DNA of 64,000 nt from Escherichia coli (GTDB lineage Bacteria > Pseudomonadota > Gammaproteobacteria > Enterobacterales > Enterobacteriaceae), in assembly GCF_050320075.1 (NCBI RefSeq), contig NZ_CP190018.1. One strand, 5' to 3'. Of this stretch, positions 34,659 through 49,716 are shown one piece after another; within the stretch, counting starts at the first letter, position 1, and the number at the start of each line of letters is the position of its first letter. Below the pieces are notes generated by a model. It was given only the letters and a program-made list of their open reading frames with translations, was not told where the DNA came from and did no database searches. Both the position numbers and the translations under genes were made by a program.

Positions 34659-35473
34659 TGAGCATTAAATTAATTGCGGTAGACATGGATGGTACTTTCT
34701 TAAGCGATCAAAAAACCTATAACCGTGAGCGGTTTATGGCTCAGTATCAGCAAATGAAAGCACAAGGCATTCGCTTTGTGGTCGCCAGCGGGAATCAATA
34801 TTATCAGTTGATCTCTTTCTTCCCTGAAATTGCTAATGAAATTGCCTTTGTGGCTGAAAACGGCGGCTGGGTAGTGAGCGAAGGCAAAGATGTTTTTAAT
34901 GGCGAGCTGTCGAAGGATGCGTTTGCTACTGTCGTGGAACATTTGCTGACGCGCCCGGAAGTGGAAATTATTGCCTGCGGAAAAAATAGCGCCTATACCC
35001 TCAAAAAATATGACGATGCCATGAAAACGGTGGCGGAAATGTATTATCACCGTCTGGAATACGTCGATAACTTTGACAACTTAGAAGATATCTTCTTTAA
35101 GTTTGGTCTGAATCTTTCCGATGAACTGATTCCACAAGTACAAAAAGCATTACATGAGGCCATCGGCGATATTATGGTGCCGGTCCACACCGGCAACGGC
35201 AGCATAGATCTGATTATCCCCGGCGTACATAAAGCCAATGGCCTTCGCCAACTGCAGAAATTATGGGGAATAGACGACAGCGAAGTAGTGGTCTTTGGCG
35301 ATGGCGGTAACGATATTGAGATGCTGCGTCAGGCAGGCTTTAGTTTTGCAATGGAAAATGCCGGCAGCGCGGTCGTCGCAGCGGCAAAATACCGGGCAGG
35401 CTCCAATAACCGTGAAGGCGTACTGGATGTGATCGATAAAGTGCTTAAACACGAAGCGCCATTTAACCAATAA
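34658..35473 (+). CDS. ybjI: HAD-superfamily (Cof-type) phosphatase YbjI
   Basis: 271 aa from ATG 34658 overlapping the ybjJ stop; DMDGT motif; paralogous to ybiV at 62501. Confidence 0.9.
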   Translation: MSIKLIAVDMDGTFLSDQKTYNRERFMAQYQQMKAQGIRFVVASGNQYYQLISFFPEIANEIAFVAENGGWVVSEGKDVFNGELSKDAFATVVEHLLTRPEVEIIACGKNSAYTLKKYDDAMKTVAEMYYHRLEYVDNFDNLEDIFFKFGLNLSDELIPQVQKALHEAIGDIMVPVHTGNGSIDLIIPGVHKANGLRQLQKLWGIDDSEVVVFGDGGNDIEMLRQAGFSFAMENAGSAVVAAAKYRAGSNNREGVLDVIDKVLKHEAPFNQ

Positions 35474-35557
35474 AACGGCAGCACGCCCGGCAACACAATG
35501 CCTGAATGAAGATTGCATAATTCGCGGAAATTAACCCGCTGCATTATTTCAGGCGAA

Positions 35558-35842
35558 ATGATTATGAAAAATTGTCTACTGTTGGGCGCGCTTTTAATGG
35601 GCTTTACTGGTGTGGCGATGGCGCAAAGTGTCACCGTCGATGTGCCGAGTGGATACAAAGTGGTTGTGGTTCCTGATTCAGTCAGCGTTCCACAAGCGGT
35701 CAGCGTCGCGACTGTGCCGTAAACCGTCTATGTGGCTCCTGCGCCAGCTCCGGCTTACCGCCCGCATCCTTATGTTCGCCATCTTGCCAGCGTAGGTGAA
35801 GGGATGGTTATCGAACACCAGATTGACGACCATCACCATTAA
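35558..35842 (+). pseudogene. ybjH: ybjH interrupted by an in-frame TAA at 35720-35722 (codon 55 of an expected ~94-codon frame)
   Basis: ATG 35558 opens a signal-peptide ORF (MIMKNCLLLGALLMGFTGVAMA...) that stops after 54 codons; the same frame continues for 39 more codons (TVYVAPAPAPAYRPHPYVRHLASVGEGMVIEHQIDDHHH) to a stop at 35840-35842; 54+1+39 = 94, the YbjH length I remember. Confidence 0.55.
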
Positions 35843-35849
35843 TTCGAGA

Positions 35850-35885
35850 ATGCCTGATCGCACAAAGCAATCAGGCATTTTTTTA
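35850..35885 (+). terminator. Rho-independent terminator after ybjH (abuts the mdfA stop)
   Basis: AATGCCTGAT-N10-ATCAGGCATT hairpin followed by TTTTTTT. Confidence 0.8.
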
Positions 35886-37115
35886 CCCTTCGTGCGAATT
35901 TCCCATCTGTTTATCTTTTAAAAAGATAACCATCAGCAACAGCCACAAAATTCCGTTGACAAGGTTGAAGAGATTAAACAGTCCGTTGCCCCCGTTCAGC
36001 CAGGCATGTTTGCTGATTTCAATACCGACGGTAAAGATCAGCATTTGCAGCATCCCCATCGCCGCAGAAACCGTACCTTTACTCATATCGCTGGCAAACA
36101 GAGTTAATCGCACCAGTCCCGCATTCGCCAGACCAATACCGAAAGCATAAATACTTAACCCGGCGGTCATCCATAAATACGCGTGCGATGAGATAACCGT
36201 TGCCGCAGCAGCGACAAACAGACCAATCATAATCGGCCAGCCGCCCATAATAATCAGCGAACGTACGGTGCGGCGCGAGGTCAGACGCGCTAGCAGCAAG
36301 TTACCCGCAATTAACGCCCCGAAAATAGGCACTTGCAGCAAGCCATATTCATAGCTGCTCAACTGCTCACCGGTAATGATGATAATCGGCGACTGGGCGA
36401 TCCACGCCAGCAACGGCAGGCTAACGAATCCCAGCGCCAGCGCCCCCGCCACAAAGCGACCGTTCTTCAGCACCAGCTTATAGTCACGACCGAGTTCTTT
36501 CAGCGACAGTTTCTCGCCTATACGCGTGGCGGTTTCAGGCATGGCTCGTTGCAGACCGAAAAAGGAGATCGCTGCCAATGCGGCAAACAAAACAAACATC
36601 CCCTCCCAGGGCAGCACATGGATCCACGCCGCGCCCACCAGCGGACCAAGTAGTGGAGCAATCAGCGCCACGTTCGCCATTAGCGCGGTGATCTTGATAC
36701 AAACCGCCTCTTCGAAGGATTCCTGAATTGCGGCATATCCCACAGCGCCAATGAAACAGAGGCTTATGCCCTGCAAGAAGCGCAACAGGGTGAATTGTTC
36801 AATGTTTTGCGCCAGTAATATTGCCAGACAGGTGACGATAAACCACACCACTCCCGCCAGCATCACCGGACGGCGGCCAATACGATCCGACAGTGGCCCC
36901 AGGAGCCATTGTAAAAACATCCCGCCCGCCAGATACGCAGTCATCGAAGTAGGAACCCAATCAATGCCCGCCTGATATTGTTCCACCACGGCCAACATAC
37001 CGGGTTGAATCATATCGTTGCCGATATAGGTTGAAAATTCGTAAAGCACCAGACAGAGAGGGAAAAGTAACGCCTGACGTCCAAGCCTGGCACCGGAAGC
37101 TAATTTATTTTGCAT
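35883..37115 (-). CDS. mdfA: Multidrug efflux MFS transporter MdfA (Cmr)
   Basis: 410 aa from ATG at 37115 ([40 protein letters not shown]...); track ORF is a 10-codon extension. Confidence 0.93.
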
Positions 37116-44288: not shown

Positions 44289-44303
44289 CACAAGGATGGA
44301 TGT

Positions 44304-44690
44304 ATGGGTGTGTATAAGGCAAGACGATTCAGCCAAAGCACGAAAAAACTTGGTATTCACGATAAAGTTCTCATGGCTGCCGCTGAAGAAGTGATGCAGG
44401 GCATATGGGAGGCTGATTTAGGTAGCGGTGTCATCAAAAAACGTTTACCCCTCCAACAAGGAAAGAGTGGTGGAGCCAGAACAATTATCTTTTTTAAATC
44501 AGCAAATCATGTGTTTTTTTATGATGGTTGGTCCAAGAGTGGTCTAAGCAGTAAAGGAACCAAAGAAATCGAAGATGATGAACTGGCGGCCTACAAAAAA
44601 ATGGCAAATGCATTTCTGGCCTTTAGCAATAAGCAAATAGAGGATTTGATCGAAACTGGCTTTTTGATTGAGGTGAAAAATGAGCGATAA
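44304..44690 (+). CDS. Putative type II toxin, RelE/HigB-like (DUF1044-type)
   Basis: 128-aa ORF with AAGGA RBS; motif GKSGGARTIIFF resembles the KGKSGG(Y/V)R(V/I)IY core of RelE/HigB-family toxins; 11-bp overlap with a downstream HTH gene. Confidence 0.6.
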   Translation: MGVYKARRFSQSTKKLGIHDKVLMAAAEEVMQGIWEADLGSGVIKKRLPLQQGKSGGARTIIFFKSANHVFFYDGWSKSGLSSKGTKEIEDDELAAYKKMANAFLAFSNKQIEDLIETGFLIEVKNER

Positions 44691-45009
44691 ATTACAAATG
44701 ATGCTGGAAGATGCAAAGGAACTGAATGCACTGGGCCTGATGTCTGATAGTGAAGTTGATGCCATTGCCGTCATGGTCAAAGCTCGTGAAGTCAGCGCCC
44801 GTATAGCCAAAGTCAAATCAATGACGGGTGAAGAGATCAAAGCCATCCGCACCCGATACGGCATGTCACAATCCGTGCTGGCACATACAATGGGAATGTC
44901 AAAAGAAAGTGTCTCGAAATGGGAACGAAATGAAATAAAACCGAGCGGCCCGGCACTACGTATTTTGAATACATTGGCAATAAAAGGGCCGGAAGTTTTT
45001 GCAAAGTAA
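44680..45009 (+). CDS. Putative antitoxin, XRE-family HTH protein (YiaG/COG2944-like)
   Basis: 109-aa ORF; C-terminal HTH (IRTRYGMSQSVLAHTMGMSKESVSKWERNEIKPSGPALRIL) resembling YiaG-type regulators; GAGGTG RBS inside the toxin 3' end. Confidence 0.6.
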   Translation: MSDKLQMMLEDAKELNALGLMSDSEVDAIAVMVKAREVSARIAKVKSMTGEEIKAIRTRYGMSQSVLAHTMGMSKESVSKWERNEIKPSGPALRILNTLAIKGPEVFAK

Positions 45010-45038
45010 AATGTTTGCAAATGATTTACCACATTCAT

Positions 45039-48487: not shown

Positions 48488-48502
48488 GGTAATGACTCCA
48501 AC

Positions 48503-49006
48503 TTATTGATAGTGTTTTATGTTCAGATAATGCCCGATGACTTTGTCATGCAGCTCCACCGATTTTGAGAACGACAGCGACTTCCGTCCCAGCCGTGCCA
48601 GGTGCTGCCTCAGATTCAGGTTATGCCGCTCAATTCGCTGCGTATATCGCTTGCTGATTACGTGCAGCTTTCCCTTCAGGCGGGATTCATACAGCGGCCA
48701 GCCATCCGTCATCCATATCACCACGTCAAAGGGTGACAGCAGGCTCATAAGACGCCCCAGCGTCGCCATAGTGCGTTCACCGAATACGTGCGCAACAACC
48801 GTCTTCCGGAGCCTGTCATACGCGTAAAACAGCCAGCGCTGGCGCGATTTAGCCCCGACGTATCCCCACTGTTCGTCCATTTCCGCGCAGACGATGACGT
48901 CACTGCCCGGCTGTATGCGCGAGGTTACCGACTGCGGCCTGAGTTTTTTAAATGGCGGAAAATCGTGTTGAGGCCAACGCCCATAATGCGGGCAGTTGCC
49001 CGGCAT
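48503..49006 (-). CDS. insB: IS1 InsB (C-terminal catalytic part of InsAB' transposase, made by -1 frameshift)
   Basis: 167-aa ORF overlapping insA in the -1 frame; sequence matches IS1 InsB. Confidence 0.93.
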
Positions 49007-49200
49007 CCAACGCCATTCATGGCCATATCAATGATTTTCTGGTGCGTACCGGGTTGAGAAGCGGTGTAAGTGAACTGCAGTTGCCATGTTTTACGGCAGT
49101 GAGAGCAGAGATAGCGCTGATGTCCGGCGGTGCTTTTGCCGTTACGCACCACCCCGTCAGTAGCTGAACAGGAGGGACAGCTGATAGAAACAGAAGCCAC
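48925..49200 (-). CDS. insA: IS1 InsA (transposition repressor / N-terminal part of InsAB' transposase)
   Basis: 91-aa [45 protein letters not shown]... (zinc finger plus HTH). Confidence 0.95.
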
Positions 49201-49255
49201 TGGAGCACCTCAAAAACACCATCATACACTAAATCAGTAAGTTGGCAGCATCACC

Positions 49256-49263
49256 AAAAATGG
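49256..49263. repeat. IS1 target-site duplication, right copy (AAAAATGG)
   Basis: See left copy. Confidence 0.8.
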
Positions 49264-49716
49264 CATCATTTCCATTTTAAGGATCACAGCGCGTTGAATC
49301 TCCTCTGTATTTTTTAATAAATACAGTGAGTCCTTTAATGTCAGGGCCGAACGTTCAATATCTTTAAAGAAATAGCCAACGTTTTTCTGAATAAGTTCAA
49401 AGCGGCTATCGGCACGTTTTACCGCGCGTTCCGAAACCAGTTGATAGTTAATGATGAAAAAAAGGCCAATAAATGACAGTGCTGCCAATAAAAATAAAAT
49501 TATCAGCCTTATCTTTATCTTTTCGTATAAACTCAGCATGTTAATACATTTAACAAAATAACTGTCTGAACGCTGTGCCGCTGCAAAAACAGTCCCTTGC
49601 TGCGGCTTTTTAACCAAATTACCCGATTCTACAAAATCAGCAGAAAGTTACAACACTTGCTTAGGGCAATAATTTCCTGTGAGGTGATTACCCTTTCAAG
49701 CAATATTCAAACGTAA

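Follow-up and report, generated by a model that had tools for sequence, protein, structure and literature searches.

A rare, clone-specific nonsense allele of ybjH in Escherichia coli

In the 64,000-nucleotide stretch of Escherichia coli DNA analysed here (hereafter, the window), the gene ybjH, which encodes an uncharacterised secreted small protein, is interrupted by a premature ochre codon. We hold with high confidence that the interruption is a genuine lineage-specific nonsense mutation, in which a C-to-T change at position 35720 turned the codon for Gln55 into a stop that has been inherited by one clone. The allele is an ordinary, rare, clone-specific nonsense pseudogene, and it has already been annotated.

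The interrupted frame and its locus

Translation of the plus strand from the ATG at position 35558 gives 54 codons up to the internal TAA at 35720–35722, followed in the same frame by 39 sense codons that end in ...VIEHQIDDHHH and by a second TAA at 35840–35842. The conceptual product of this region (35558–35842) reads MIMKNCLLLGALLMGFTGVAMAQSVTVDVPSGYKVVVVPDSVSVPQAVSVATVP before the internal stop and TVYVAPAPAPAYRPHPYVRHLASVGEGMVIEHQIDDHHH between the two stops. The initial annotation had described the same layout, and the 94 codons it expected of the intact gene (54 + 1 + 39) agree with the annotated length of K-12 YbjH (b0843, 94 aa). An open run of 39 codons has a probability of approximately 15 per cent of occurring by chance and is not significant alone; the truncation is nevertheless a solid observation, because it rests on a base-for-base match to intact ybjH and not on the length of the open run.

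Both gene order and sequence identity mark the frame as the ybjH orthologue. A 501-base query from this region has matches in 5,422 of the 5,426 complete E. coli genomes, in which the feature is annotated as ybjH and is flanked by ybjI and mdfA, and the order ybjJ–ybjI–ybjH–mdfA–ybjG is common to K-12 and the relatives of the window. The full 285-base frame, which is also the length of the CDS in K-12 MG1655 (b0843), aligns to its K-12 counterpart with one difference, at 35720. Five matches to the ybjI–ybjH–mdfA region in the complete-genome collection sit on plasmid-classed records; these could be chromosomal segments carried on plasmids or mis-assigned replicons.

The same substitution, CAA (Gln55) to TAA, is the only difference in the CDS when the window is aligned with either K-12 or the closely related strain CFSAN061763. 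Specifically, in an alignment of 401 bases the window matches strain Ec-U3 throughout, differs from CFSAN061763 solely at 35720, and differs from K-12 at 35720 and at four non-coding flanking bases. K-12 ybjH (b0843, NP_415364.1) occupies the same ybjI–mdfA locus, has the same frame length and converges in the same way with mdfA, and its other 93 codons specify the same amino acids as those of the window. The proteins of K-12 and CFSAN061763 are intact (94 aa) and are otherwise identical to the window's conceptual protein. The stop is thus located where relatives have a sense codon (CAA in K-12 and CFSAN061763, with Gln in at least 90 per cent of 30 homologues), as is expected of a pseudogene. 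The proposal in the initial annotation that a 94-codon ybjH had become a nonsense allele through a single-base change is therefore upheld: K-12 does not share the TAA or an annotated protein of approximately 54 aa, but has CAA and 94 aa. The ancestral codons that had been suggested (GTA, TCA or TAC) were wrong, because the codon in K-12 and the nearest relatives is CAA. There is no Dam or Dcm motif at the mutated C, which rules out a methylation-linked error or hotspot at 35720.

Table 1. Positions of ybjH features, private substitutions and other features in the window
Feature	Position	Strand	Description	Basis
ybjH frame	35558–35842	+	94 codons and stop when intact; interrupted here by an internal stop (pseudogene)	
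54 translatable codons	35558–35719	+	Probable signal peptide (residues ~1–22) and 32 mature residues	Translation
Premature ochre stop	35720–35722	+	TAA at codon 55	Alignment with CFSAN061763 and K-12
39 untranslated codons	35723–35839	+	TVYVAP...RHLASVGEGMVIEHQIDDHHH; most conserved segment of the family	
Intrinsic terminator	35846–35889	+	Hairpin and U-tract between convergent ybjH and mdfA	Folding
Private SNP	25015		potG Glu262Lys (GAG to AAG)	
Private SNP	32695		Intergenic C to A between ybjL and rcdA	
Private SNP	43024		rimO Arg91Leu (CGC to CTC)	
Pentapeptide-repeat gene	~14710–15950 (Ec-U3 record 3129167–3130405)		Incomplete pseudogene, C-terminus missing in all three related genomes	
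RelE/ParE-family toxin gene and overlapping helix-turn-helix antitoxin-like gene	~44300–45010 (L005 28615–29320)		Between rimO and dgcI	
IS1B	~48500–49540 (L005 32814–33850)		Inserted in the sensor phosphodiesterase gene pdeI	

Directly 3' of the ybjH stop, direct folding gives a hairpin at 35846–35882 (−19.8 kcal/mol; z = −7.0), and none of 200 shuffled sequences was as stable. Its stem has 13 bp, extended on the inside by 2 bp, and a run of seven U residues comes after it, in agreement with the strong terminator noticed at this place in the initial annotation. The hairpin is absent from the output of a consensus terminator scan, probably because its outer loop is larger than the scan's 8-nt limit; we set this negative result aside, since the scan is limited in loop length and direct folding yields a strong hairpin. 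The minus-strand ORF of mdfA ends at 35883, which places the hairpin between two convergent genes, and the convergent transcript overlaps of K-12 include that of mdfA and ybjH (PMC12288877). With ybjH being the last gene before a terminator that it shares with convergent mdfA, no downstream gene on the same strand would be expected to suffer a polar effect. Any effect of the premature end of translation on the mdfA–ybjH overlap is speculation. Beside the shared terminator, at position 35896 (mdfA codon 407), strain YZLc1-3 has a Ser407Leu substitution relative to the window and Ec-U3, near the C-terminus of this multidrug efflux pump.

Elsewhere in the window, the interrupted pdeI leaves a CHASE9-domain fragment that is annotated as a pseudogene; in CFSAN061763, an IS1 element is located instead in the neighbouring diguanylate cyclase gene dgcI. 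We know of no counterpart on the K-12 map of the RelE/ParE-family toxin and antitoxin-like pair that lies between rimO and dgcI.

The lost segment of YbjH and its likely effect

Homologues of YbjH are confined to Enterobacteriaceae (Escherichia species, Citrobacter, Buttiauxella, Lelliottia and Enterobacter) and are 83–97 aa in length. When 30 homologues are aligned, the Gln55 column is at least 90 per cent conserved, and 12 of the 19 invariant columns fall after codon 55 (S78, V79, E81, M83, I85, E86, H87, Q88, D90, D91, H92 and H93). The best-conserved part of the protein, which includes the C-terminal ...SVGEGMVIEHQIDDHHH, is therefore lost to the TAA. On the retained side, the N-terminus looks like a signal peptide when judged by eye, with cleavage placed between MIMKNCLLLGALLMGFTGVAMA and QS, and the mature N-terminal motif QSVTVDVPSGYKVV, which is conserved among homologues, is still present in the truncated product.

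YbjH falls into no Pfam or NCBIfam family (its Pfam matches are sub-threshold, and NCBIfam returned none), and its AlphaFold model is of low confidence (pLDDT 60, pTM 0.19). For the mature protein it predicts only one element of secondary structure, a beta-hairpin of low confidence at residues 73–88, within the lost part. We dropped a fold search because the model is too poor.

Because the best-conserved part of the protein lies beyond the stop, the TAA allele most likely abolishes YbjH function, as judged from the conservation of the lost C-terminus; some residual activity may persist, given that the conserved N-terminal motif is retained. We infer the following history. A spontaneous C-to-T change at 35720 would have occurred in the recent ancestry of one E. 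coli clone and would have been inherited since. Translation would end after 54 codons, cleavage of the signal peptide would leave a peptide of approximately 32 residues without the conserved His-rich C-terminal module, and the function of YbjH would be lost. Re-initiation at the GTG at 35732 is unlikely, as this codon has no Shine-Dalgarno sequence and the resulting product would be without a signal peptide.

Distribution of the allele and alternative readings

The allele is very rare. A 61-mer centred on the site and carrying TAA occurs in two complete E. coli genomes, as compared to 4,999 of 5,420 for the corresponding CAA 61-mer. A survey with a TAA 31-mer, designed so that every 28-base seed word spans the stop site, recovered the same two carriers among 5,426 complete E. 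coli genomes. The carriers are Ec-U3, from human urine in Burkina Faso, and YZLc1-3 (assembly version.2), from chicken faeces in China; our search for literature on either strain found none. In both carriers the standard annotation pipeline has already flagged the allele as a pseudogene, and the RefSeq entries (ACVUFI_RS15010 in Ec-U3 and N4725_RS16010 in YZLc1-3) read "protein YbjH, internal stop". Both pseudogenes have their TAA at the same position as the window, and the 501-base region of Ec-U3 is 100 per cent identical to that of the window.

The window and the two carriers are members of one clone, because they are nearly identical and pdeI is interrupted by IS1 at the same place in all three. 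Four SNPs separate the window from YZLc1-3 across 40 kb and five separate it from Ec-U3, with no indels; across the full 64 kb, the comparison with Ec-U3 gives seven SNPs and again no indels. The nearest genome with CAA has nine SNPs in 29.6 kb, and its IS1 is at another site. Within the clone, the window has three SNPs of its own that are absent from Ec-U3, YZLc1-3 and CFSAN061763 (Table 1), and consequently no complete genome in the collection is byte-identical to it. On account of these private SNPs, we regard the window as a third isolate or as another assembly version of a carrier. Of the three explanations that the initial annotation had left side by side (a strain polymorphism, a suppressible ochre codon and a sequencing error), the first is the correct one, with the TAA inherited in one rare clone represented by Ec-U3 and YZLc1-3.

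An exact-product look-up for the 54-aa peptide returned two further contigs, L007 and L008. The first (GCA_029579355.1) is an artefact, with a run of 10 N at the stop site. The second (ENA ERZ28616188, scaffold_197570) is a metagenome scaffold of 556 bases with CAA changed to TAA at its position 297. Of its 556 positions, 8 differ from the window, and its ybjH haplotype is a different, K-12-like one; relative to the nearest CAA contigs of its own haplotype group, it differs at three positions, the stop site included. This pattern suggests that the TAA of L008 is an independent C-to-T change at the same base, as far as the haplotypes can tell; the alternatives are that it may derive from a very short recombination tract or that a scaffold of low coverage may carry an error here.

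E. coli also has rare natural alleles of ybjH with in-frame deletions, which encode 62–88 aa (P0106, P0117, P0077, P0078 and P0013). The calls of 64 aa (P0106) and 62 aa represent one allele, which is present on approximately 176 contigs of a large protein collection. Like the TAA allele, these are rare length variants of E. coli ybjH. They drop the central Val/Pro-rich segment PSGYKVVVVPDSVSVPQAVSVATVPQTVYV, which lies between similar VDV/VYV codon runs, and they keep the frame and the conserved C-terminus that the TAA allele loses.

These observations bear on whether the truncation is adaptive, that is, whether loss of the C-terminus has been positively selected and is recurrent, as opposed to being a neutral or slightly harmful passenger in one clone. 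The same C-to-T change on the clearly different flanking haplotype of L008, the circulation of the other length-changing alleles and the spread of the carrier clone over continents and hosts are what this explanation would predict. However, carriers of the stop are extremely rare, the natural deletion alleles retain the C-terminus, and L008 is a single 556-base scaffold with private variants and unstated coverage, in which the T could be an error. Moreover, no spontaneous change is commoner than C to T, and a single step leads from CAA to TAA, so among the very large number of E. coli sequenced some recurrence is expected by chance. We therefore consider an adaptive truncation to be improbable. 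In its most specific form, the change from CAA to TAA would have arisen at least twice on unrelated haplotypes (those of the window clone and L008), and removal of the His-rich C-terminus would be selected under some condition; we regard this as a long shot. Such selection might act, for example, under metal or envelope stress, or by way of the convergent mdfA transcript that overlaps ybjH, and we think these possibilities similarly doubtful. If true, a recurrent, selected truncation would mean that ybjH undergoes adaptive gene loss.

The rarity of the allele might instead indicate that the TAA arose as an error of sequencing or assembly and that the real genome has CAA. Besides the count of 2 in 5,426 genomes, a TAA 29-mer has no match in JGI metagenome contigs, versus 41 matches for its CAA counterpart, and the apparent 54-aa gene call on L007 did prove to be an assembly artefact caused by its N-run. 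Yet the window shares this base with two near-identical clonal genomes, Ec-U3 and YZLc1-3, which were produced independently by different groups from different hosts on different continents. The change is also a substitution and not a homopolymer indel, and it is outside any Dam or Dcm motif. Furthermore, the three pseudogenes in the 64-kb region of Ec-U3 include none of the frameshift type, so nothing points to an error-prone assembly. An error at this position is, in our judgement, extremely unlikely.

A final question is whether cells with the allele still make full-length YbjH, with an ochre-suppressor tRNA decoding the stop or programmed readthrough passing it. All 39 codons after the stop are indeed intact and in frame, which is equally expected if the mutation is recent. 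In E. coli both release factors act at UAA, and no stop codon is less leaky. We searched the complete genomes with full-length K-12 genes for tRNA-Gln(UUG), tRNA-Lys(UUU) and tRNA-Tyr(GUA) edited to a UUA anticodon, a search that covers single anticodon changes in K-12 tRNAs within the complete-genome collection. No edited query had a 100 per cent match in any of the 5,426 genomes, both carriers included; as a positive control, the wild-type tRNA genes were detected with one mismatch to the edited queries in more than 5,400 genomes. The window itself has no tRNA gene in its 64 kb, and an Rfam search of positions 35000–36500 gave no match, nor is there another recoding signal at the locus. Close relatives have CAA, homologues from other species all have a sense codon, and the stop is confined to 2 of the 5,426 genomes, all of which argue against a conserved recoding site. 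Continued synthesis of full-length YbjH by suppression or readthrough is thus exceedingly improbable, and the explanation that we retain is a genuine nonsense mutation inherited within one clone.

Known ybjH biology and significance of the allele

The searchable literature on E. coli ybjH consists of expression data only. The gene is transcribed, and its transcript rises together with those of fepC, fhuB, fecA and suf in cells that lack TorR or mislocalise it (PMC5294996). The genes that rise alongside it serve iron uptake and Fe-S assembly, and the rise of ybjH with these Fur-type iron genes was reported in torR mutants (PMC5294996). The surroundings of the ybjH start codon (35540–35575, GAAATGATTATGAAAAATT) have a loose likeness to half of a Fur box, at approximately 10 of 16 positions when compared by eye. 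The "YbjH" of Staphylococcus aureus papers is the unrelated adaptor YjbH and was left aside.

The TAA allele matters little in itself and points to no new mechanism. As a marker, it is useful for one E. coli lineage, which has been recovered both from human urine (Burkina Faso) and from chicken faeces (China). The allele could also help studies of YbjH, since it amounts to a naturally occurring knock-out of the conserved C-terminus in this uncharacterised secreted small protein.
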